From the NCBI GenBank assembly GCA_964589485.1, contig CAZPRK010000007.1, forward strand, positions 1 to 39,442: a stretch of DNA of 39,442 bases. Direction: 5' to 3'. Under the pieces are notes generated by a model that ran no database searches, was not told where the DNA came from, and saw nothing but the letters and a program-made list of their open reading frames with translations. This document shows, piece after piece, positions 1,303-38,675 of the stretch. Positions within the stretch are counted from its first letter, which is position 1. Each line of letters starts with the position of its first letter. The translations under genes were made by a program, and so were the position numbers. The stretch is from an uncultured Methanosarcinales archaeon (GTDB taxonomy: Archaea; Nanobdellota; Nanobdellia; Woesearchaeales; CAYSVS01).

Positions 1303-2511
1303 ATGAAAAAAACTATATTTTTACTATTAATTGTATTAATGTCATCATACGTATCAGGAGGATTGGTTGATGGTCATAAAATTGAAGCTACGTTAATAAG
1401 CCAAACTGCAGACCCAGTAAAACCTGGTGAATTTGTAGAATTAAGATGGAAAATTGAAAATATAGGTAAAGTATTAAACAATGTTGAGTTTGAACTTCTT
1501 CCAGAGTACCCTTTTAGTTTAACTGATTCAGGCATAAGAAAAGTTGGAAGTTTATATGGTAAGCAACAAGGCGATGATGCTGTTATTCTTTATTATAAAT
1601 TAAAAGTAGATGAAAGAGCAGTTGAAGGTATTAGTAAGGTAAAATTAAAATATAAAACTAATTCTTTAACTTGGACAACATTTCCTGATTTTGATGTTAG
1701 AATTCAAACAGATGATGCAATTTTATCTGTTGTTTCAGTTAACACTATACCTGAAGTGATTGCCCCCGGGGAAAAAGCAAGTATTGAAATTAAGTTAAAA
1801 AATGAAGCTGATTCAGTTTTAAAAAACATAAAATTAAAATGGACAACTTTATCCTTAACTTCGTCCACAACCGAACTACCATTTACTCCAATTAAATCTA
1901 CTAATGAAAAAATATTAAATTCATTACATCCAAAAAATGAAGAAAGTATTACATTTAATGTTGTAGTTAGTCCTGAAGCTGAGGCTAAAGATTATAAAGT
2001 AGAATTATCTCTGTCGTATGAAGATGAACTAGGAGAAAATTTCTCAACAAAAAATATAATGGGAATCATAGTTGGTAAAACTCCAGAATTAAGAATAACT
2101 CTTGAAGAAAGTGAAATTGTTAAACCAAATATGAATGGAGATGTTGGAATTAAAATAGTAAATAAAGGTGTAAGTGACATTAAATTTACAAATATAATTC
2201 TTCAAGAAAACGAATGTTATACAATACTTTCACCACATGAAGTTTATTTAGGAAATATTGACTCAGATGATTATGAAACTGCTGAATTTAAGCTCCATAT
2301 GCAAGGTTGTAATAACTTGCCAATTATTCTATCTTACAAAGATGCAAATAATCAAGAATATATTGAAGAACATACATTAAACATGAAACTATTTTCTGAA
2401 AAAGAAGCAATCAAGTTTGGATTAATTCAAAAAAGTAACAAAGTTGGAATATTATTAATTATTATTATCGTAGTTGGTGGATTTTATCTTTGGAGACGCT
2501 ATAAGAAATGA
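1303..2511 (+). CDS. COG1361 S-layer-domain / Ig-like repeat membrane-anchored protein
   Basis: N-terminal signal peptide, repeated Ig-like motifs (PVKPGEFVELRWKIENIG, IAPGEKASIEIKLKN), C-terminal TM helix plus basic tail; lies between ATPase and MacB permeases as is common in archaea. Confidence 0.8.
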   Translation: MKKTIFLLLIVLMSSYVSGGLVDGHKIEATLISQTADPVKPGEFVELRWKIENIGKVLNNVEFELLPEYPFSLTDSGIRKVGSLYGKQQGDDAVILYYKLKVDERAVEGISKVKLKYKTNSLTWTTFPDFDVRIQTDDAILSVVSVNTIPEVIAPGEKASIEIKLKNEADSVLKNIKLKWTTLSLTSSTTELPFTPIKSTNEKILNSLHPKNEESITFNVVVSPEAEAKDYKVELSLSYEDELGENFSTKNIMGIIVGKTPELRITLEESEIVKPNMNGDVGIKIVNKGVSDIKFTNIILQENECYTILSPHEVYLGNIDSDDYETAEFKLHMQGCNNLPIILSYKDANNQEYIEEHTLNMKLFSEKEAIKFGLIQKSNKVGILLIIIIVVGGFYLWRRYKK

Positions 2512-3734
2512 TTTTAGATTATATTGGCTTAGCCTTCAATAATTTAAGAAGAAGAAGGTTAAGAAGTTGGCTTACTTTAATTGGAATTATAATCGGAATA
2601 GCTGCAGTTATTTCTTTAATTGGTTTAGGTGAAGGACTTAGAGTAGCTATAACTTCTCAGTTCGGATTACTTGGAAATGATGTGCTTAGTGTAAGAGCAT
2701 CCGGAATTGATTTTGCAGGTCCTCCAGGAACTAATACGCCAAATCCTTTATCTGATACATTATATAAAAAACTTGAAAATATTAACGGTATTGAAGCTGC
2801 ATTTAACAGGGATTTAGAAACAGTATTAATGAAATTTAACGATAAAGAAAAAACGGTTATAATAGCTTCATCTCCGGAAGGAAAAAATAGAAAATTATTT
2901 GAAAAAATGTTAAACCTGAAAACAGTTGAAGGAAGGTTACTTAAAGATAATGATAAGAAAAAAGTTCTTATTGGTTATAATTTTGGTAATAAAGATAATT
3001 TTGGTAGATCTATATCTAGTGGAAGTAAAGTTGAAATAAATGGTATAACTTTTGAAGTTGTCGGAAGACTTGAAAAAAAAGGATCTTTTATAATTGATAA
3101 TAATGTAATCACAAATGAAAAAGATATTCTTGAATCATTAGACAAAGACGATGGAACTGCGAATATAATTGCAGTTAAAGTTAAAGATGTTGACAAAATT
3201 AACATTGTCAAAAAAAATATAGAAAAAATATTAAGAAAAGAAAGAAATGTCAAAAAAGGTGAAGAAAATTTTATTGTACAAAGTCCAGTAAATGCAATTG
3301 AAAGTTTAAATTCAACTTTATTTGCAATTCAACTTTTTATTACAATAATCGCAACCATTTCTTTATTAGTTGGTGGAATTGGTATTATGAACACCATGTA
3401 TACATCAGTGCTTGAACGAACAAAGGAAATAGGAATAATGAAAGCTCTCGGAGCTAAGAATTCAGAAATATTCAAAATATTTTTTATCGAGTCTGGGTTT
3501 TTAGGACTTGTTGGAGGGTCTTTAGGTCTAATTATTGGGTTAATATTAGCATTTGGATTTGCATTTATTGGAAGAACTTTTTTAGGAAGTCAATTAATTC
3601 AAGCTCAAGTTACATTAACAGTTATAATAGGTTCAATGTTATTTTCATTTATATTAGGTATTATATTTGGTGTATTGCCAGCAATTCAAGCTTCAAAATT
3701 AATTCCAGTAGATTCATTGAGGAAAGCAAAATGA
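2508..3734 (+). CDS. ABC transporter permease, MacB/FtsX family
   Basis: RRRLRSWLTLIGIIIGI N-terminus, GGIGIMNTMYTSVLERTKEIGIMKALGA, PAIQASKLIPVDSLR; ATGA overlap with upstream gene. Confidence 0.93.
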   Translation: MILDYIGLAFNNLRRRRLRSWLTLIGIIIGIAAVISLIGLGEGLRVAITSQFGLLGNDVLSVRASGIDFAGPPGTNTPNPLSDTLYKKLENINGIEAAFNRDLETVLMKFNDKEKTVIIASSPEGKNRKLFEKMLNLKTVEGRLLKDNDKKKVLIGYNFGNKDNFGRSISSGSKVEINGITFEVVGRLEKKGSFIIDNNVITNEKDILESLDKDDGTANIIAVKVKDVDKINIVKKNIEKILRKERNVKKGEENFIVQSPVNAIESLNSTLFAIQLFITIIATISLLVGGIGIMNTMYTSVLERTKEIGIMKALGAKNSEIFKIFFIESGFLGLVGGSLGLIIGLILAFGFAFIGRTFLGSQLIQAQVTLTVIIGSMLFSFILGIIFGVLPAIQASKLIPVDSLRKAK

Positions 3735-4939
3735 GCGAAGAATTAAAATATGCAATTGGTAACTTGAAAAAAAGAAAATTAAGAACATTCCTTAGCGTTA
3801 TTTCTATTACAATAGGAATTACTTCAATTTTTGCAATAGTTAGCTTTGGATTAGGTTTACAAAGTTATGTTAATGAAATTGCTGCAGAAGCTGGTGTAGA
3901 TAAATTATTTATTCAATCAAAAGGAATAGGCGCTCCTGGTACAGATTTAACTTTTTCATTATCTAAAGAAGATATAAATTTTATAGATAAAATAAAAGGT
4001 GTAAATCAAATTACAGGTGTATATGCTCAAGCAGGTGAGATTGAACATAATAAACAAAAAAGGTTTGTATTTATTATGGGTATTGATACTAAACAACTTG
4101 ATTTTATTGACGAAAGTTTTACTGCTACAGTTGAAAAAGGAAGACATTTAAAAAAAGGAGATATAGATAAAGTTGCCCTAGGTTACAACTATCAATTAAA
4201 TGATAAAATATTTAAAAAGAAAATTAATATTGGAGATAAAGTTAATATTAATTCAAATAAATTTGAAGTCATAGGTTTTTATGAAGAACTTGGAAACCCT
4301 CAAGATGATTCAAACATTTACTTAACAAGGGAATCTTTTGAAGAAATATATCCAGATATTGAAGATAAGTTTGGTTTTCTTATGATTAGAGCAGATAAAA
4401 ATGTTAAAACTGCTGACTTATCTGAAAAAATAACTGAAAAATTTAGAAAACATAAAGATCAAAAAAAAGGAGAGGAAACTTTTTTTGTTCAAACTTTTGA
4501 AGACGCATTAAAAACTTTTGGAGATGTATTAAATGTATTGAATGGAGTTTTATTTTTAATTGCACTAATTTCATTAATAGTTGCAACTGTAAATATAATG
4601 AATACAATGTTTACAGCTGTAATGGAAAGAACAACTGAAATTGGTATAATGAAAAGTATCGGTGCTAAAAATTCAACAATACTAAAAATATTTATGTTCG
4701 AATCAGGAATTATAGGTTTAATAGGAGGAGTTACTGGAATCACAATTGGTTTTATTATTGCTTCTATTGGCGGAAATGCAGCTGCTGCATCTGGATTTTC
4801 TTTATTAAAGCCAATATTCCCTTTTAGTTTAATTTTTGGATGTTTATTATTTGCTTTAATTACCGGAATTATCGCAGGATACTTACCTTCAAGAAAAGCT
4901 TCAAACTTAAAACCAGTAGATGCTTTGAGATACGAATAG
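3731..4939 (+). CDS. ABC transporter permease, MacB/FtsX family (paralog)
   Basis: IMNTMFTAVMERTTEIGIMKSIGA and PSRKASNLKPVDALRYE motifs; ATGA overlap. Confidence 0.93.
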   Translation: MSEELKYAIGNLKKRKLRTFLSVISITIGITSIFAIVSFGLGLQSYVNEIAAEAGVDKLFIQSKGIGAPGTDLTFSLSKEDINFIDKIKGVNQITGVYAQAGEIEHNKQKRFVFIMGIDTKQLDFIDESFTATVEKGRHLKKGDIDKVALGYNYQLNDKIFKKKINIGDKVNINSNKFEVIGFYEELGNPQDDSNIYLTRESFEEIYPDIEDKFGFLMIRADKNVKTADLSEKITEKFRKHKDQKKGEETFFVQTFEDALKTFGDVLNVLNGVLFLIALISLIVATVNIMNTMFTAVMERTTEIGIMKSIGAKNSTILKIFMFESGIIGLIGGVTGITIGFIIASIGGNAAAASGFSLLKPIFPFSLIFGCLLFALITGIIAGYLPSRKASNLKPVDALRYE

Positions 4940-4987
4940 TATCTGAAAGCTATGAACACAAGTGAATATGCTTTGAGATTCGAATAG
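4920..4987. repeat. direct plus inverted repeat (A-A'-A) hairpin element between convergent genes
   Basis: ATGCTTTGAGATACGAATAG (4920-4939) vs ATGCTTTGAGATTCGAATAG (4968-4987), 19/20 identical; intervening GTATCTGAAAGC (4939-4950) is an imperfect inverted copy. Confidence 0.85.
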
Positions 4988-4988
4988 A

Positions 4989-6116
4989 TTAATAAAACTC
5001 TTTTAATAATTTAAATACTTCTGGATTATTTTGTAATTTTCTAATGGCTCTATTTTCTATTTGTCTTATTCTTTCTCTTGTTACTCCTATTTTTTTTCCA
5101 ACTTGTTTTAAACTTCTCGCCCAGCCATCATCTATTCCAAATCTCATATTTAATATGTAAGCTTCTCTTTCACTTAATATACTAAACGCTTCTTTAACTT
5201 TACCTTTTAATGTATTTTGTTCTACAATTTCTTCAATATCTACAACTTCGTCTTCTATAAGTTCATTAGATTCTCCTTCGAAAATTGCATCGAGTGAAGA
5301 TGTTTGTTTTAAATTTAAAAGAAAGTTTATCCGTTCTTGAGGTAATTCAAATTCTTTGGCAATTAACTCTATATCTGGTTCAAAACCATATTCAGTTTGA
5401 AATTCTCCTACAAAATTAGCTATTTTTTTTTGAACTTCTTTTACGTGAACAGGTATTCGTACTAAATTATCAGATTGTAAATAACGTTGTATAGCCTGAT
5501 TGATCCACCAAGTAGCATATGTAGAAAATTTATATCCTAACTTATGTTCAAATTTTGGAATTGCCCTCATCAAACCTAAATTACCTTCTTGAATTAAATC
5601 TAAGAATACCCTATCATCTCTTAGATACTTCTTCGCAATATTTACAACTAATTTCGTATTACATTCTACAAATTTGTATACGGCTTGTTCATCTCCCCTA
5701 TCTACAGCGATAGATAGTTCACGTTCTTGTTCTTTAGTTAGTAAAGAATGACCCTTAATTTCATTTAAATAAAGACTTGTTGGATCGAGCAAATCTACTT
5801 TTCTTTCAAGTAACTCAACTTCATGTAATCTACTAATAGGTAAAACAGTATGATTATTATGATTAACTAAATATTCATAAACTTTACTAAATGTTAAACC
5901 TAATTTCTTTGTTACTTGATCTACGGTTAAATGAGATTTAGATTCAGGTATAGGTTCACCGCTAATTATATGTAAGTGATTTATAATATAAGCTCCTTTA
6001 ATTTCAGGTCCATGTAATTCTTTTAACCTTCTAATATCTTTAGATTCTAATTGACGTACCTTCTCTGTTTCATAAGATCTCAATAGAGATATTCCTGAAT
6101 ATAAATTGGATGTCAT
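4989..6116 (-). CDS. RNA polymerase sigma-70 family factor, RpoD/RpoS-like (regions 1.2-4.2) with N-terminal extension
   Basis: Region 1.2 DPTSLYLNEIKGHSLLTKEQE; region 2 DLIQEGNLGLMRAIPKF..GYKFSTYATWWINQAI; region 3 VRIPVH; region 4 LSEREAYILNMRFG..SLKQVGKKIGVTRERIRQIENRAIRKL. Confidence 0.95.
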   Translation of the reverse strand: MTSNLYSGISLLRSYETEKVRQLESKDIRRLKELHGPEIKGAYIINHLHIISGEPIPESKSHLTVDQVTKKLGLTFSKVYEYLVNHNNHTVLPISRLHEVELLERKVDLLDPTSLYLNEIKGHSLLTKEQERELSIAVDRGDEQAVYKFVECNTKLVVNIAKKYLRDDRVFLDLIQEGNLGLMRAIPKFEHKLGYKFSTYATWWINQAIQRYLQSDNLVRIPVHVKEVQKKIANFVGEFQTEYGFEPDIELIAKEFELPQERINFLLNLKQTSSLDAIFEGESNELIEDEVVDIEEIVEQNTLKGKVKEAFSILSEREAYILNMRFGIDDGWARSLKQVGKKIGVTRERIRQIENRAIRKLQNNPEVFKLLKEFY

Positions 6117-6134
6117 TTTACAAGAAATAACGTA

Positions 6135-6149
6135 TATTTATAAAAAGCT
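6135..6149 (-). promoter_or_regulatory. archaeal TATA-like promoter of sigma gene 1
   Basis: Minus strand AGCTTTTTATAAATA; TTTATAAATA begins 28 nt upstream of the ATG at 6116; no SD. Confidence 0.6.
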
Positions 6150-7082
6150 TTAGTACAAATCTTCTAATTGAGAAGCAAATTTACTTTCTCTTAAATTTTT
6201 TAATCCTCTTTTATACAATTTTCTAGCAATCCCATCAGATCTATTCATTCTTCTACCTATTTCTCTCAAAGATAATTTATCTACACCTAAACCAAAAGCA
6301 TGAGTAATAACAAAATATTCTCTTTCATTTAAAATTTTTAAAGCATCTTTAATAACTTCACTTTTTTTTAGAATTTCAAATGCAGAGTCTACAGTACCCG
6401 GAATAATGTCACCAAGTGAAGAATTTTCACTTATTGGGTCATCTAAAGAATATGAAACTCTACTACTATTAACAACTTCAAATACTTTCTTTGTAGGTAA
6501 GCTTAGTTTTACAGCTATTTCTTCCAAAGAAGGTTCCCTTTTTAATTTTTTTCTTAGAATTTCTTGTTCTCTTTCAATTTTACTTTTATTTTTAATTAAG
6601 CTAACAGGTAACCTAATTAAATAAGCTGTCATTTTAACTGCATCTTGAATTGACTTTCTAAGTTTAGAGTTAGCATAAGTAGAAAATTTATACCCAAGAG
6701 ATTTATCAAAGTCTTCTATTGCTTTATATAATCCAAAAATAGTTTCTTGAAAATAATCAAATAAAGTTAGACTTGTATTATGTCCTTTCTTAATTTCTTT
6801 TTTTGCAAATTGCATACCTAATCTTAGGTTTGAAAACAATATTGTTTGAAATGCATCAGGGTCTCCGTTTTCATATTGTTCAAAAAGAGATATTTCTTGT
6901 TCAGGTGTAAGAACTTCATATTTTTGTAAAATAGAAACATAATCTTGGAAATTATAATTTGAATCAGTATTTTCTAAAACTTTACTAGATAAATTAGCAG
7001 ATAAATCTAACATTCCTCTTACTTCTTGACCTAATACCTGAGGAAGATCATATAATACTCCTATTTCTGAAGAACCTCTCAT
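6150..7082 (-). CDS. divergent sigma-70 family factor
   Basis: YEVLTPEQEISLF (1.2), SNLRLGMQFAKK (2.1), FDKSLGYKFSTYA (2.3), LIRLPV..LKREPSLEEIAVKL..SLDDPI (3), LNEREYFVITHAFGL..LSLREIG (4). Confidence 0.88.
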   Translation of the reverse strand: MRGSSEIGVLYDLPQVLGQEVRGMLDLSANLSSKVLENTDSNYNFQDYVSILQKYEVLTPEQEISLFEQYENGDPDAFQTILFSNLRLGMQFAKKEIKKGHNTSLTLFDYFQETIFGLYKAIEDFDKSLGYKFSTYANSKLRKSIQDAVKMTAYLIRLPVSLIKNKSKIEREQEILRKKLKREPSLEEIAVKLSLPTKKVFEVVNSSRVSYSLDDPISENSSLGDIIPGTVDSAFEILKKSEVIKDALKILNEREYFVITHAFGLGVDKLSLREIGRRMNRSDGIARKLYKRGLKNLRESKFASQLEDLY

Positions 7083-7102
7083 AAATAAAGTAATAATATG
7101 TT

Positions 7103-7120
7103 AATTTATAAGATTTTCTT
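7103..7120 (-). promoter_or_regulatory. archaeal BRE-TATA-like promoter of sigma gene 2
   Basis: Minus strand AAGAAAAT-CTTATAAA; box begins 30 nt upstream of the ATG at 7082. Confidence 0.6.
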
Positions 7121-7192
7121 ATTAAGTATTTTTAGTTATTAATACTTATAAATTAGCAAACATTTTTAAATGATATTTTTTCTTAAAATAAA

Positions 7193-8065
7193 ATGAATGC
7201 ATTATCCATCAATAATTTAGAAAAAACATACTCCAATGGAATGAAAGCTCTAAAAGGCATTTCTTTTGATGTAGAAGAAGGAGATTTTTTCGCATTACTT
7301 GGTCCAAATGGAGCAGGAAAAACTACAACTATAGGCATAATTACTAGTTTAGTAAATAAAACAAATGGAAGTTTAAAAGTTTTTGATAAAATTAAACAAA
7401 CTGAAATTAAAAAAATGATTGGAGTTGTACCTCAAGAGTTTAATTTCAACATATTCGAAAAAGTTATAGATATTATTGTTACACAAGCTGGATATTATAA
7501 TGTACCAAAAAAAGTTGCATTAAAAAGAACTAAACCATTATTGGAAACTTTAGGATTATGGGATAAAAGAAACCATAAAGCAATTACATTATCTGGTGGA
7601 TTAAAAAGAAGATTAATGATTGTAAGAGCTTTAATCCATAGACCTAAATTATTGATATTAGATGAACCTACAGCAGGCGTTGATGTTGAACTTAGATATA
7701 GTATGTGGGAATTTCTTAAAAAAATGAATAAAAATGGAACTACAATTATCTTAACAACTCACTATTTAGAAGAAGCTGAGCAGTTGTGCAATAAAATTGC
7801 AATTATAGATAAAGGAATTATCGTAAAAAATACAACAATGAAAGAATTACTTAAAACTGTAGATAAGGAAACTTATCTTATAGAAACAAAAAAGCCAGTA
7901 AAGAAAAAAGAGTACTTTGATTTAAATAAAATAGATACTAATACTTATGAAGTAAGTTTAAACAATAAAGATTTAAACAAATTTTTCAAAGATAATGAAG
8001 TAGTCAATATAAGAAACAAAGTTAACAAATTAGAAGGTTTATTTATGCAATTGGTGAAAAAATGA
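7193..8065 (+). CDS. ABC-2 type transporter ATP-binding protein (YadG-like)
   Basis: GPNGAGKTT, LSGGLKRRLMIVRAL, LILDEPTAGVD, TTHYLEEAE. Confidence 0.93.
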   Translation: MNALSINNLEKTYSNGMKALKGISFDVEEGDFFALLGPNGAGKTTTIGIITSLVNKTNGSLKVFDKIKQTEIKKMIGVVPQEFNFNIFEKVIDIIVTQAGYYNVPKKVALKRTKPLLETLGLWDKRNHKAITLSGGLKRRLMIVRALIHRPKLLILDEPTAGVDVELRYSMWEFLKKMNKNGTTIILTTHYLEEAEQLCNKIAIIDKGIIVKNTTMKELLKTVDKETYLIETKKPVKKKEYFDLNKIDTNTYEVSLNNKDLNKFFKDNEVVNIRNKVNKLEGLFMQLVKK

Positions 8066-8817
8066 TAGATTTAAAGACATTAGTAAATAGAGAGATTGAA
8101 AGATTTATGAGAATATGGACTCAAACTTTACTTCCTAGCGTAATAACAACTGCTTTATATTTTCTTATATTTGGTAAATTTATAGGAAACCAAATAAATG
8201 ATATTTCTGGGTTCAGTTACATGGCATTTATCGCTCCAGGGTTAATTATGTTAGGCGTTATAATGAACTCATATCAAAATGTATCAAGTTCATTTTTTTT
8301 AGCAAAATTTCAAAAAAGTATTGAAGAATTATTAGTTTCTCCAATTTCAAATAATAAAATAATATTTGGATTTATGTTAGGAGGAATGTTAAGAGGAATT
8401 TTTGTCGGAATCTTAATCATGTTAGTTTCATTATTTTTCATAGATCTTCAAGTATATAGTTATTCAGTTGTTTTAATTTATTTAATTTTAACTTCAGCAT
8501 TATTTTCACTTGCAGGGTTAATTAACGGAATATATGCAAATAATTTTGATGAAATTATGGTAGTTCCAACTTTTGTTTTAACTCCATTAATTTATTTAGG
8601 AGGGATATTTTATTCATTAGACGCTTTATCTGGATTTTGGCAAGGAGTTTCTAAATTAAATCCTATTTTATATTTAATCAATGGATTTAGGTTTGGTTTT
8701 TTAGGTATATCTGATATTAATATATTTGTTTCATTTGGAACTTTAGTTATATTTGTAATTATATTCTATGGAATAACTTATTACTTAATCGATAAAGGTA
8801 TTAGAATTAAGAGTTGA
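8062..8817 (+). CDS. ABC-2 type transporter permease (YadH-like)
   Basis: REIERFMRIWTQTLLP, IEELLVSP, NPILYLINGFRFGFLG; six TM segments. Confidence 0.9.
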   Translation: MIDLKTLVNREIERFMRIWTQTLLPSVITTALYFLIFGKFIGNQINDISGFSYMAFIAPGLIMLGVIMNSYQNVSSSFFLAKFQKSIEELLVSPISNNKIIFGFMLGGMLRGIFVGILIMLVSLFFIDLQVYSYSVVLIYLILTSALFSLAGLINGIYANNFDEIMVVPTFVLTPLIYLGGIFYSLDALSGFWQGVSKLNPILYLINGFRFGFLGISDINIFVSFGTLVIFVIIFYGITYYLIDKGIRIKS

Positions 8818-9190
8818 AATATTCTTTTTCCATTTTTTGCAATAAACGTAATTCTTTCATCAATTTATGAGTTTTATATTCAAGAGAAAGCTTAAGTGTT
8901 TTCATAGGCGATATTTCACGTTCAGTTAACAAAACTATTTTTTTAGTTAAATCATATAATTCTTCTTCAGAATATTGAAAAATTCTTGGAAATTTTTCTT
9001 CTTTTAAGCCTATTAAAAAATCAAGTCGGTTTCTAGCAAGTTCATCTAAATATGAAATTTTAGAATAAAAAATTATATCTTGTTCCGGTTGCACTTGTAA
9101 AGACCTTATATTCTGAGTAGACCTTAAATCACAAATAAAATACATACCATTTTCATTTTCAAAAGGAACATAATGTAAATCTAATCTCAT
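8807..9190 (-). CDS. hypothetical protein (127 aa)
   Basis: ORF fills the gap; TATA-like TTTATAAATT about 28 nt upstream. Confidence 0.6.
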   Translation of the reverse strand: MRLDLHYVPFENENGMYFICDLRSTQNIRSLQVQPEQDIIFYSKISYLDELARNRLDFLIGLKEEKFPRIFQYSEEELYDLTKKIVLLTEREISPMKTLKLSLEYKTHKLMKELRLLQKMEKEYFNS

Positions 9191-9212
9191 AAAATAAATA
9201 AATTAACTTAAT

Positions 9213-10193
9213 TTATAAATCTTTATTCCTTATATTTTTAATTAACCTCTTAGCAAGATTAAACAACTTACTTCTAGGAAAGCCAGGAAAAACATTTAAT
9301 TCTATAACATATGCTTTATCTTTACTCAACAAGACATCAACACTTGTAAAATTAACATTATAAGCTTTCGCCGCTTTAATAGCTTGAATTTCAGCTTTTT
9401 TCATTAAATGTTTAGGAATTTTTTTCAAATAATTTTGAGTTTCACCTTTGCCACCTTGACTAATATTAGTAACTACATTCTCTGCATCATTACTTCTTGG
9501 ATAAATATAACAAATTTTACCATAACTAATGTAAAACCTTAAATCAAACTTTCTTTCATTTATTAAATAAGGTTCAATTGCATCTTCAATAATAATATCA
9601 TTTTTTAATAATTCGGATAAAAATTTATCGTTACTTTCTTTAAAACTCCATCCATGATCACTTTTTCTGCTTATAATTCTTCCAGACTTAAATCTAAAGT
9701 TAGTTAATATTTTATTTTTACTAATATAAGTAATTCCTTTACCCATTCCCCCATAACGAACTTTAATGAATATATTCTTTTTTTGAGATAATTCTTTTAT
9801 TTTTTTTATACTTCTTGTAAAATAAGATTTAGGAACAGTTATTTTATTCTTAATCAGTAATTCTTTGATATATTCTTTATCTCTGTCAAAATATAATTTA
9901 CTTGGATGAACAACATATTTAATATTTTTATATTTTTTTTCTAACTTTTTTTGATAAAACTCAAGGTAATTTCTTAATTTATCAAAGAATTTTTTATTTC
10001 CATAAATCCCCCTATACTTTGGAGTTTCTATATAATTATTCCAATACCATTCAGGAAAAAATAAAATAGCGATAACATTTCCTTTAATATCAGGTAATAG
10101 TTTCCCGTATTTTGCAGAAACAACATTTTGTTTAATAAATTTCAAATAAGATTCATAATCAGAAGAATTACCTATTGCCAAAATAGTTGTCAT
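9213..10193 (-). CDS. ATP-grasp fold ligase (RimK / YheC-YheD-like)
   Basis: FIKVRYGGMGKGI, KFDLRFY, VVTNISQGG, SVDVLL..VIELNVFPG. Confidence 0.85.
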   Translation of the reverse strand: MTTILAIGNSSDYESYLKFIKQNVVSAKYGKLLPDIKGNVIAILFFPEWYWNNYIETPKYRGIYGNKKFFDKLRNYLEFYQKKLEKKYKNIKYVVHPSKLYFDRDKEYIKELLIKNKITVPKSYFTRSIKKIKELSQKKNIFIKVRYGGMGKGITYISKNKILTNFRFKSGRIISRKSDHGWSFKESNDKFLSELLKNDIIIEDAIEPYLINERKFDLRFYISYGKICYIYPRSNDAENVVTNISQGGKGETQNYLKKIPKHLMKKAEIQAIKAAKAYNVNFTSVDVLLSKDKAYVIELNVFPGFPRSKLFNLAKRLIKNIRNKDL

Positions 10194-10233
10194 TTATTTA
10201 TTTTAAAATTAATTGTTTAAATAGTTATTTAAT

Positions 10234-10587
10234 TTATTTTGTTGTTACATTATGTTCATAATTTTGAGAGCCTATTGCAATCGGTTGGTTAGCTGGTTGC
10301 CTTCCTCTTAATTTATGTTTGTGCATTAAAGATTGAGTTTTACGTAATTCAACTAATTGAGTTACAATTAATTCTAATTTATTAGGATCAATAGAAGTTG
10401 CAATTTTTCTTAATTCTTTATTTGAAAGATGATATAACTTTTTTTGAAATTGATTTCCATATAAAGACAAAGCTCCTCCCAAGTAAATAATTTCATCATG
10501 CGTAGAATGACTTTTCATTCCTGTAATTATAGAGGGAAACCTAGTCTCAAATTCACCATACTCTTTTTTTTGATTAAATCTATACAT
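10234..10587 (-). CDS. hypothetical protein (117 aa)
   Basis: ORF directly downstream of the NSS transporter; no motif. Confidence 0.5.
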   Translation of the reverse strand: MYRFNQKKEYGEFETRFPSIITGMKSHSTHDEIIYLGGALSLYGNQFQKKLYHLSNKELRKIATSIDPNKLELIVTQLVELRKTQSLMHKHKLRGRQPANQPIAIGSQNYEHNVTTK

Positions 10588-13161: not shown

Positions 13162-14241
13162 ATGTACAAAGTAATTACATTTTATAGATATGTATCGTTA
13201 AATGACACCAATAAAGTAATTAACAAACTAAAACATTTATGTAAAAAATTAATGATAAATGGGAGAGTTTTACTTGGTGAAGAAGGGATTAACGGTGGAG
13301 TTTCTGGAACTATAGAAAACATTGAAACTTTCAAAAAAGAAATAGAATCAATATTTCCTAATTTAACATATAGGGAACAAAATTCTAAAAATAACCCTTA
13401 CCATAAATTAGTTTTAAGAGAAAGGGATGAAATAGTTGCATTTGGAGAAAAAGTTAATATTTCTAATACAGGAAATCATATTAAGCCTAAAGAATTTAAA
13501 GAAATGTTAGATAATAAAGAAGATATTATTGTTTTAGATGCAAGAAACGATTATGAATTTAAAGTTGGAAAATTTACTAATGCTATTGATTTGGACATAA
13601 CTAATTTTAGAGATTTTGGAAAAAAAGTAAATAAACTTGAAGAATATAAGGATAAAAAAATAGTTATGTATTGTACTGGGGGAATAAGGTGTGAAAAAGC
13701 TTCTGCTTTTCTAAAAGAAAAAGGGTTTAGTAATGTAAATCAATTAGAAGGTGGAATTATTGCATATGACACTGAGTTTCCAAAAACACATTTTGAAGGT
13801 AGTTGTTTTGTTTTTGATAACAGAAAAACATCTAGAATGAATAATCCAATAAGTGAATGTAAAATATGTAATGAAAAAACAGATGAAATAACTAATTGTC
13901 ATAATATTGATTGTGATAAATTATTTGTATGTTGTACTTCATGTCAAGAAAAAATGAATTCTTGTTGTAATGAAGAATGTAAAAATTCACCTAAACAAAG
14001 ACCAAAAAAAGAAATTAAGAAAGTAATAGGTAAGGTAATTAATTATTATGCAAAACCAAAAATAGCTTATGTTGAATTATTTGAAGAAGCTAAAGACATT
14101 TCTATTAAAGGAAAAACAACTAAGGAATTTAACATAACATTAAATAATCCTATTAATGAAGAAGGAGAAACAAGGTTTATAGGAAAAGTTACTTTCCCTA
14201 TTAGTTCTAAAGTTAGAAAAAATGATTTGGTTTTAGTTTAA
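13162..14241 (+). CDS. trhO: tRNA U34 hydroxylase TrhO (YceA/UPF0176 rhodanese family) with C-terminal extension
   Basis: GRVLLGEEGING, LDARNDYEFKVGKF, MYCTGGIRCEKAS, QLEGGI, FEGSCFVFDNR, Cys-rich C-terminal domain. Confidence 0.88.
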   Translation: MYKVITFYRYVSLNDTNKVINKLKHLCKKLMINGRVLLGEEGINGGVSGTIENIETFKKEIESIFPNLTYREQNSKNNPYHKLVLRERDEIVAFGEKVNISNTGNHIKPKEFKEMLDNKEDIIVLDARNDYEFKVGKFTNAIDLDITNFRDFGKKVNKLEEYKDKKIVMYCTGGIRCEKASAFLKEKGFSNVNQLEGGIIAYDTEFPKTHFEGSCFVFDNRKTSRMNNPISECKICNEKTDEITNCHNIDCDKLFVCCTSCQEKMNSCCNEECKNSPKQRPKKEIKKVIGKVINYYAKPKIAYVELFEEAKDISIKGKTTKEFNITLNNPINEEGETRFIGKVTFPISSKVRKNDLVLV

Positions 14242-26079: not shown

Positions 26080-27015
26080 CTATGAACAATCTTTCATCTT
26101 ATCAACGTATTGTTTTAACTTTTTTTTCAAAGCATCTTTATCTTCATAACTTAGTTTATCAACTTCTTTATCCCAATCTACTTTTGGCAGTTTAGTTAAA
26201 CTAAATTCATAGTTAAAACCTGCATCCTGTATTTGCTTTTCTATAAATTTACTTTCTTCAGAATTAAATTTTTTTATTACTGGGAACTTAGTTATTTGGT
26301 CCGCACCTGATTCTAATATAAACTTAGTATATCCTGGATTTTTTGGTGTAAGACCAGCAATAACTTTCAATTCAGGAAAAGTATCTTTTGTTTGTTTTAT
26401 CCACCAAGCATAATATTCTTCGTTTGGACTTTCGGTAAAAGGTGTTCCTTGAACTGGCTTTAATGCATAAAAAGTTATTCTAGTTAGTTTATGTTCTTTA
26501 ATGAATTTCACTAAAGTTGGAAAATCTTCCTTTGTTTCACCTAAACCTATTACAATTGTCATTGCAGTTTTTAATCCTAGATCTAATGAATTCATCAGCA
26601 TTTTAGAGTAAGGTAATAAAGGCTTACCAGGACAAACATCTTTTTGTACTTGTTCATTTACAGTTTCACATGACGCATATACTCCTTCAACATAAGGCAT
26701 TAATTTTTCAATTTGTTTTTTTCCTAAAACTCCTAAATTAACCCATAATTTTTCTCCATAAACTTCATAAACATATTTTGCAATTTCAACTATTTCATCA
26801 AATTCAAAAATACCATATCCACCTGTAAGAAACTCATTATGTAATCCTAAGTGTTTACCAATAATAGCTTCACATAAAACACTTTCAACTGTTCTTTTAG
26901 CTGTTTTTGCATGTTTTATCTTATGCTTAGTTGTACTTCTGAAACAAAATGTACATGTTCCCAGTTCACAATACCAAGATAAAAATATACACCTGCTAAA
27001 TCCAATTGTTTTCAT
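26080..27015 (-). CDS. radical SAM protein, biotin synthase-related, with CX4CX2C motif
   Basis: SWYCELGTCTFC, FLTGG, CETVN, IVIGLGET, YALKPVQGTPF. Confidence 0.8.
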   Translation of the reverse strand: MKTIGFSRCIFLSWYCELGTCTFCFRSTTKHKIKHAKTAKRTVESVLCEAIIGKHLGLHNEFLTGGYGIFEFDEIVEIAKYVYEVYGEKLWVNLGVLGKKQIEKLMPYVEGVYASCETVNEQVQKDVCPGKPLLPYSKMLMNSLDLGLKTAMTIVIGLGETKEDFPTLVKFIKEHKLTRITFYALKPVQGTPFTESPNEEYYAWWIKQTKDTFPELKVIAGLTPKNPGYTKFILESGADQITKFPVIKKFNSEESKFIEKQIQDAGFNYEFSLTKLPKVDWDKEVDKLSYEDKDALKKKLKQYVDKMKDCS

Positions 27016-38583: not shown

Positions 38584-38675
38584 AGCCTCTGGGGAGATTT
38601 GAACTCCCGACCTGTCGCTTTCTTAGATCATAAGATCATACTAGGCGACCGCTATAGCCACTAAGCCACAGAGGC
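38584..38675 (-). tRNA. tRNA-Thr(AGT) with 19-nt intron at 37/38
   Basis: Minus strand GCCTCTG TG GCTTAGTGGCTATAGC G GTCGC CT AGT A [TGATCTTATGATCTAAGAA] A GCGAC AGGTC GGGAG TTCAAAT CTCCC CAGAGGC T; perfect acceptor, anticodon and T stems; U73; no CCA. Confidence 0.9.

Follow-up and report, generated by a model that had tools for sequence, protein, structure and literature searches.

A tandem pair of domesticated bacterial-type sigma-70 genes in a Woesearchaeales genome

What do two bacterial-type sigma-70 genes do in an archaeon? The question is raised by a tandem gene pair, here called sigma A and sigma B, that an earlier note had picked out on contig CAZPRK010000007.1 (C7) of assembly GCA_964589485.1, a marine Woesearchaeales draft genome of 1.16 Mb in 23 contigs, each of 26-30% guanine-plus-cytosine (GC) content, with a completeness of 99.9% and a contamination of 0.74%. 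The window is the whole stretch of this contig that was analysed, 39,442 nucleotides (nt) long. Our analysis confirmed that the pair is real, intact and domesticated. Sigma-70 genes are known as a class in Woesearchaeota, and the pair is a further case of that class, not a new phenomenon.

Both proteins carry regions 2 and 4 in sigma order and above the Pfam cut-off, which places them in the sigma-70 family (Table 1). The earlier note had read regions 1.2, 2, 3 and 4 in two intact open reading frames (ORFs). The frames are indeed intact, and Pfam calls regions 1.2, 2 and 4 in A and regions 2, 3 and 4 in B; region 3 of A and region 1.2 of B are not called, though both stretches align. The top NCBIfam models are of the RpoD/SigA type and remain below cut-off (241 against 572 and 217 against 354 bits for A; 136 against 572 bits for B), and region 1.1 (PF03979) is absent from both proteins by Pfam. 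With no region 1.1, RpoD scores below the NCBIfam cut-off and no cognate bacterial core found, neither protein is a primary (group 1) sigma. A has the makeup of a group 2 (RpoS-like) sigma, with regions 1.2-4, no region 1.1 and sigma70-like melting and recognition residues; B falls outside that group, with W433S, W434K and Q437K (E. coli numbering here and below) and 2 of 10 recognition sites kept. E. coli RpoD is 40% identical to A over 268 amino acids (aa). With the AlphaFold model of A (predicted local distance difference test, pLDDT, 75), the best 50 of at least 500 Foldseek matches were all bacterial RNA polymerase (RNAP) or sigma structure chains (E 1e-17).

The genome that houses the pair is archaeal. 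TBP and two TFB genes make up an archaeal initiation set, and tblastn and phmmer searches with E. coli RpoB and RpoC matched only the split archaeal Rpo2 and Rpo1, at 22-32% identity, plus one 28-aa segment. The E. coli RpoA query had no match by either program in this 99.9%-complete draft, nor did the E. coli NusG query. Only the archaeal polymerase being found, no cognate bacterial core is seen in the genome, as the earlier note had supposed, and A and B are its only Sigma70_r2 matches. The archaeal features listed for the contig were also recovered: Taw1 (TYW1 model above the NCBIfam cut-off), an intron-bearing tRNA, and a MacB operon that occurs in both same-genus genomes as well.

The promoters are archaeal too. 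Initiation through the TATA box, the TFB recognition element (BRE), TBP and TFB is established in archaea, as stated in the accessible text of PMC7289017. A TATA box had been noted 28-30 nt before each ATG, with no Shine-Dalgarno (SD) motif, and this is what we found: TTTATAAA starts at -28 of A, CTTATAAA starts at -30 of B, and no SD-like motif lies upstream of either gene. Using ORF calls and an operon rule made for this analysis (1124 ORFs kept), the TATA boxes of operon-first genes peak sharply at -30 from the ATG, preceded by an A-rich BRE (-35 to -33). YTTATAAA starts between -36 and -26 in 79 of 618 operon-first ATG genes, compared with 13 of 618 at -66 to -56 and 0 of 293 operon-internal genes. 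A BRE+TATA matrix was trained on 248 other promoters of the genome, A and B excluded; the share that reaches a score of 6 is 41% among operon-first genes and 3.9% among control windows, and both sigma promoters score well above 6 (Table 1). Among the sigma genes of relatives, 32 of 106 reach the matrix threshold at this spacing, whereas a control window yields 4 of 106. Since the BRE of A overlaps the end of B, each gene has its own promoter, and we infer that both are expressed as leaderless mRNAs.

Composition agrees with this picture. The sigma genes have a GC content of 26-28%, like their neighbours; GC at third codon positions is 12.6% in A and 9.7% in B (median 13.0%), and their codon bias lies at the 64-65th percentile among 239 genes of similar length. 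The domestication claimed by the earlier note is thus borne out by a BRE and TATA box at the genome's own -30 position and by host-like codon usage, and so are its statements on base composition and on mobile elements, as no integrase or transposase occurs among the top NCBIfam matches (best 5 per ORF) of 46 window ORFs.

Could the pair be an assembly chimera or bin contamination? Such cases occur in relatives: in G016:C67 (L003), probably a contig of bacterial origin binned with an archaeon, the sigma groups with Moraniibacteriota RpoD. Here, however, a contig of run X1, possibly the source assembly, spans 2500-10500, and contigs from further samples of the same study, one in X3 (3806-5532) and two in X4 (5731-6962, 6961-7330), bridge the macB/A, A/B and B/ABC junctions with zero differing letters; pieces listed for X5, from a second study, cover parts of the locus and bridge no junction. 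No chimeric junction is seen, and the archaeal promoters, host codons, archaeal neighbours and low contamination of a nearly complete bin make an artefact hardly credible. Archaeal host markers, bridged junctions and archaeal promoters together mark the pair as native to a DPANN archaeon.

Table 1. Coordinates of the sigma pair and associated features in the window
Feature	Position	Strand	Basis
Sigma A, RpoD/RpoS-like sigma-70 protein, 375 aa, without Pfam region 1.1, unique ~105-aa N-terminal extension	4989..6116	-	Pfam, NCBIfam, AlphaFold, Foldseek
Sigma B, divergent sigma-70 protein, 310 aa	6150..7082	-	Pfam, alignment, equal-length relative P0167
A N-terminal extension, three predicted helix-turn-helix (HTH)-like helices (residues 41-86)	5859..5996	-	AlphaFold/DSSP
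A region 2, core-binding D403/Q406/E407/N409 and melting Y430/W433/W434/Q437 equivalents intact	5472..5669	-	Pfam, alignment
A region 4, -35 recognition helix TRERIRQIE identical to sigma70	5031..5186	-	Pfam, alignment
B Pfam region 2 stretch, 2/42 residues changed in P0167	6633..6758	-	Pairwise comparison
B region 4.2 HTH, non-canonical recognition helix, 0/24 residues changed in P0167	6201..6272	-	Pairwise comparison
A promoter, BRE + TATA, leaderless type; A-rich BRE overlaps B stop codon	6137..6152	-	Matrix score 11.0
B promoter, BRE + TATA, leaderless type	7105..7120	-	Matrix score 11.0
20-nt direct repeat, possible insertion scar at left edge of the pair	4920..4987	+	Repeat search; putative role

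Judged by its sequence, A looks equipped for a bacterial RNAP, with most core-binding, melting and -35 residues retained. M413, E555, R562, F563, I565 and L598, all kept, are residues that we take to be core contacts; K418, F419, Y425, T429, Y430, W433, W434, Q437 and R441, also kept, presumably serve melting and -10 recognition, and the conserved T583-E591 presumably forms the -35 helix. Most functional positions behind these tallies are presumed ones, with the exception of 403, 406, 407 and 409. These four, unchanged in A, have core-binding roles according to the accessible text of PMC8321222. L384, R385 (to K), K414 (to R), R436, T440, E574 and part of the 3.2 finger are changed. At RpoD-invariant positions A keeps 6/7 core-binding, 7/8 melting and 8/10 recognition residues, compared with 45% of 44 other invariant polar positions, a profile like that of E. 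coli RpoS (5/7, 8/8, 9/10 and 50%). In a comparison with the bacterial sister proteins, 24 of 30 listed sites are retained in A, and 94 of the remaining 199 (p=0.0008). In the archaeal sigma units that bear a TATA box (28 in all), the retention rate is 0.67 at 18 polar functional sites and 0.42 at 44 other polar sites that are invariant, with p=2e-4 when kin are treated as independent and the set is chosen by region-2 score.

The N-terminal extension of A is a different matter. DSSP assigns helices to residues 41-52, 65-72 and 76-86 of the model, at pLDDT 55-73, and HTH clusters of the Atlas match at 0.75-0.79 only, under 0.8, a mere lead. The N-terminal 112 aa matched only themselves among 59 candidates of our protein set and nothing in the genome or the sigma loci, and a shared N-terminal targeting domain was rejected on these grounds. 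Extensions of at least 50 aa occur in 55 of 110 relatives. In four loci, G108:C5 (L095), G176:C9 (L056), G030:C1 (L113) and G090:C59 (L101), the sigma-70 core sits at the C-terminus of frames of 830-1760 aa with long N-terminal parts.

B has taken another course. It keeps L384-L386 and D403/Q406/E407; its W433/W434 dyad reads S and K, followed by K437 and D441, and its -35 helix is rewritten. A relative of equal length, P0167 (310 aa, 79% identical), shares these promoter-reading replacements. The differences between the two proteins fall largely outside the DNA-reading parts: 15 of 33 linker residues are changed, Pfam regions 2 and 4 together show 8 changes in 95 positions against 57 in 215 elsewhere (p=2e-4), and a run of 42 identical residues covers region 4 (permutation p=0.0014). 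As P0167 shares the replaced residues and leaves the HTH untouched, B is not decaying. For this one pair, at the protein level, the purifying selection on which the earlier note's reading depended is therefore seen for B, and the pattern argues for selection on a new DNA-reading surface. B could be a duplicate of A, though the comparisons do not link the two: the tree leaves B unplaced, A and B are 27% identical, and B lies outside the top 15 of 108 for sister-diagnostic sites, despite some residues common to both by eye.

Which polymerase could such proteins serve? The docking site of sigma region 2.2 is the beta' coiled coil, where R275Q, E295K and A302D impair holoenzyme formation (accessible text of PMC8321222). 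The coiled coil of the cell's own Rpo1' has I, L and H at the positions of E. coli beta' R275, E295 and A302. R271 and R297 are both replaced by D, and the stretch holds 3 basic residues where E. coli has 9; R278, P288 and Q300 are retained. The docking positions are alike in 15 sigma-bearing and 14 sigma-negative genomes, which were chosen by sigma status (29 of 31 viewed; one was missed by the pattern and one is partial). In a rough pairwise alignment the Rpo2 flap-tip equivalent has no hydrophobic helix. The poor residue match with the cell's own polymerase is thereby borne out, at the clamp in 29 genomes and at the flap tip. Promoters of the -35/-10 type were not enriched in 616 upstream regions at 1, 2 or 3 mismatches (at two or fewer, 42 observed against 62 in shuffles of 2-mer blocks). 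A predicted complex of A domain 2 with the own Rpo1' clamp (score 0.06, mark 0.32) carries no weight either way. The clamp mismatch, the flap tip and the missing promoter excess make the archaeal RNAP an unlikely partner in bacterial geometry. A and B might still be alternative initiation factors for it, reading acquired bacterial genes from bacterial promoters: bacterial-type genes are many in these genomes according to the accessible part of PMC8204110, A keeps nearly all DNA-opening residues, and the clamp coiled coil is homologous, with R278, P288 and Q300 kept. Yet the clamp surface is charge-reversed, sigma-bearing genomes show no clamp adaptation, and the TATA peak dominates upstream regions devoid of -35/-10 enrichment, so that we consider this role highly improbable.

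The history of the genes bears on their role. Sigma70_r2 is widespread among relatives: of 301 same-order genomes 115 have a match (four of them flagged as unpublished), and of 251 same-class genomes 65 do, in the kind of HMM survey that the earlier note had proposed as a check; 3 of 5 homologues looked up are labelled Woesearchaeota or Nanoarchaeota by NCBI. Rinke et al. are said to have reported DPANN sigma-70 genes earlier, in 2013. Castelle et al. (2021; PMC8204110), in their passage on family fam00359, describe sigma-70 genes in DPANN archaea, prevalent in Woesearchaeota, exclude mis-binning and leave the mechanism open. Their supplementary row gives 39% of 196 Woesearchaeota, close in kind to our count, and the present case adds to that passage a tandem pair, the bacterial sister of A, the conserved rewired specificity of B and the clamp mismatch. 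In the literature on DPANN sigmas or hosts, seen as titles and abstract beginnings with subscription journals mostly outside, PMC8204110 alone treats DPANN sigmas and none treats their function; the accessible parts of PMC4598750, PMC6142677 and 10.64898/2026.10.08.757525 do not mention them.

For the trees, a set of 110 sigma units from 95 loci was compiled (best-scoring matches plus 60 chosen regions), with 6 partial units dropped and two loci from unpublished genomes excluded. A is sister to a bacterial sigma clade, with 98 by the Shimodaira-Hasegawa-like approximate likelihood ratio test in a quick tree of 78 rows and 99/96 in a careful tree of 35 rows whose bootstrap had not fully settled. 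Its top database matches include P0003-P0006 of this clade, and a clade-specific motif scan retrieved 3 metagenome loci (L198-L200) and 0 viral ones. These loci have 46% GC and a dnaE-accD-accA-sigma operon, annotated by eye, whose sigma is MBT3785853.1 at NCBI, labelled 'bacterium'. This sigma is up to 50% identical to A in the core and likewise without region 1.1; it differs in being operon-encoded and on short branches, the branch of A being several times longer (1.96, against 0.25 plus 0.06-0.3 on the sister side). Among at least 600 contig-scan matches, the sigmas listed are generic RpoD proteins of up to 55% identity. A viral origin was rejected, as the best phage matches, from 318 records, stay below 45% identity.

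In the tree, the sigmas from the two same-genus genomes lie away from A, and no orthologue of the pair is found there. Since A is sister to a bacterial sigma and not to these archaeal ones, the trees point to repeated sigma transfers into Woesearchaeales lineages. A single archaeal clade of homologues, the expectation of the earlier note, was not recovered: archaeal rows group in 0 of 200 bootstrap trees and the starred branches force at least 3 changes, although many branches are long. Could the genes then be transient passengers, rpoD-like genes often picked up from neighbouring bacteria, briefly kept and slowly decaying? The patchy distribution, the several origins, the long branches (5.75 for B, most bacterial rows having 0.1-0.7), the lack of a same-genus orthologue and the variable locus would fit. 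The frames are nevertheless intact after full codon amelioration from a GC content such as that of the nearest bacterial loci, each gene has a top-scoring promoter, and the constrained B/P0167 pair changes mainly in its linker, all of which makes mere passage improbable.

Two or more sigma copies occur at 14 of 95 loci, often one with altered promoter-reading residues; the long branches and the clustered copies are consistent with a conflict-type gene family. At one such locus, G040:C3:16414-20277 (L002, L086), four tandem sigma-70 genes form a graded series, with a near-RpoD copy at 383 bits and a very divergent one at 134 bits as its extremes. Defence or decoy proteins, which would bind the bacterial-type polymerase or the promoter DNA of a virus or mobile element and so block it, would evolve fast and form such arrays, and A also scores against the model of the MzaA anti-phage-associated sigma, though far below cut-off (210 against 800 bits). 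As the annotated neighbours include neither defence nor viral genes and no close phage homologue is seen, we regard such a role as remote.

The earlier note had left two options, effectors acting on a bacterial partner or DNA-binding regulators. Both stand, and the evidence leans modestly toward an effector in the case of A. Our tentative preference, drawn from sequence comparisons, is that A and B may act on the RNAP of a bacterial host or prey. This Woesearchaeales lineage would have captured A from a bacterium, in an event separate from the acquisition of the same-genus sigmas, and both genes would have been recoded to host codon usage and read as leaderless mRNAs. The proteins would then work, much as phage sigmas do, on the bacterial RNAP of an attached host or prey cell. 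A might load on the bacterial core and drive housekeeping-like (-35/-10) transcription, for instance keeping a drained host active; B might join that core too, bringing a distinct and conserved DNA specificity, or compete for it without melting DNA. Such action in trans explains the kept core contacts, the clamp mismatch, the missing target promoters and the repeated capture, and the conflict-type look of the family would suit it as well.

Are there signs of contact with bacteria? Two proteins of the genome, G000:C1:16566-18551 and C21:1-1373, have GH73 peptidoglycan-hydrolase domains above cut-off and N-terminal hydrophobic stretches. Lgt is present, and PcrB/geranylgeranylglyceryl phosphate (GGGP) synthase has no match in the genome. 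Bacteria as hosts or prey of Woesearchaeota are proposed, but not proven, in the accessible parts of PMC8204110, PMC9723730, PMC12352652 and PMC11868695. A lytic transglycosylase match (G072:C8:51782-54187) lies ~1 kb from a tandem sigma pair in one relative, a single case. Contact-dependent transfer need not involve a signal peptide.

Several observations weigh against action on a bacterial RNAP. The lytic transglycosylase domain SLT, which has matches in 168 of 301 same-order genomes, has none in this one, and a sigma-SLT co-occurrence was rejected, SLT being independent of sigma presence (64 of 115 sigma-bearing against 104 of 186 other genomes, p=1.0). A hydropathy scan of 106 archaeal sigmas found 1 weak N-terminal hydrophobic window and 0 transmembrane segments, with no search aimed at delivery systems. 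The loss of the W dyad in B and the extra HTH-like helices in A fit a plain DNA-binding role equally well. At invariant positions only, A keeps 21 of 24 functional sites and 50 of 65 others relative to its bacterial sisters (p=0.38). D403 is kept in 95 of 104 archaeal sigma units; it lies at a helix start and may be retained for folding, and the comparison set was selected by Sigma70_r2 score, which inflates region-2 conservation. The proposal would also need a delivery route and a bacterial host, and we know of no such route for archaeal sigma proteins. A bacterial host of Woesearchaeota 'remains to be seen', and signalP is 0 for fam00359, in the consulted passages of PMC8204110, and cultivated DPANN all have archaeal hosts according to the accessible part of PMC11291902.

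These points leave room for regulators at home that bind DNA independently of any polymerase, region 4 reading duplex and region 2 binding opened or forked promoter DNA, as repressors or helpers of TBP/TFB. Neither protein has a region 1.1 to autoinhibit DNA binding, both are cytoplasmic proteins with no export signal, and the non-canonical recognition helix and region 2.3-2.4 of B are strongly conserved in P0167. The HTH-like helices of A and the N-terminal extensions of half the relatives could belong to such factors, and a regulatory role is raised in the accessible text of Castelle et al. 2021 (PMC8204110). On the other hand, the acidic core-binding triad is kept in A, B and most clustered copies with no obvious home partner, unless it is structural; A keeps sigma70 specificity, yet its predicted motif is unenriched upstream of archaeal genes, where a small regulon would be missed; and there is no conserved gene neighbourhood over 95 sigma loci, the largest shared neighbour family reaching 3 loci. 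We hold a regulatory role to be possible but doubtful.

Compared with known systems, A resembles bacterial RpoD/SigA and RpoS in regions 1.2-4.2 and in its RpoS-like conservation profile; it departs from RpoD/SigA by its missing region 1.1, unique N-terminus, eroded 3.2 finger and the absence of a cognate core in the genome, and B by its missing W dyad and -35 helix motif. Phage-encoded sigmas (Schwartz et al., 10.1101/2021.11.12.468384, accessible part) offer an analogy only: a parasite makes a host-like sigma for a foreign polymerase and alters host transcription. A phage gene is expressed inside the host, whereas an archaeal product, protein or mRNA, would have to cross two envelopes, and no close phage homologue is seen.

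The left edge of the pair carries a direct repeat. One unit (4920-4939) is the end of macB including its stop, and a 19/20 copy (4968-4987), 48 nt downstream, lies just past the A stop; comparable direct repeats are confined to 25 of the genome's 200-nt bins. Degenerate macB-end repeats also follow macB in G002 (L234), by eye, and the macB 3' end may be a recurrent insertion site. In the same-genus genome G001 (L233, G001:C14) the macB operon is followed ~100 nt later by a PRK06267-type radical-SAM gene, which in the window lies at 26080-27015, so that ~21 kb (~4940-26080) are inserted or rearranged relative to G001 and the sigma pair begins a variable segment. Within it, 7193-8817 (+) encodes a bacterial-type ABC-2 permease above the PRK15066 cut-off, a query without match in the two same-genus genomes, and 13162-14241 (+) a TrhO tRNA hydroxylase match above cut-off. 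The intron-bearing tRNA lies at 38584-38675 (-), with 55 bits by Rfam and an ARAGORN call of Leu or Ser. It has a 5' GCC and discriminator U; if the intron is placed at 37/38, the anticodon would be AGU, possibly of a tRNA-Thr with A34, and A34 tRNAs are to our knowledge very rare in archaea. Elsewhere in the genome, G000:C1:29734-42543 and 47590-60225 encode two proteins of more than 4200 aa with signal-like N-termini, and giant surface proteins are numerous.

Roughly four of every ten Woesearchaeota possess sigma genes whose polymerase they seemingly do not make, and the present evidence narrows the open question of what DPANN sigmas do. The pair makes this question testable without culturing: A is predicted to use a standard bacterial core on consensus promoters, and B to bind the core but read other DNA. 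If the proteins instead bind DNA without a core, the sigma fold would have been turned into a stand-alone regulator. Action on a bacterial core, if true, would be molecular evidence of DPANN archaea manipulating bacteria and would allow hosts to be inferred from sigma phylogeny. More speculatively, and we think this broader proposal rather unlikely as it stands, Woesearchaeota living on bacteria may repeatedly capture their partners' sigmas, transcribe the genes from archaeal promoters and send the proteins into the bacterial cell to redirect its RNAP, as cross-domain transcription effectors. A would then imitate a housekeeping sigma, B would be either a jammer or a sigma whose promoter code is newly evolved, and the sister group of A would point to the kind of bacterium on which this lineage fed.

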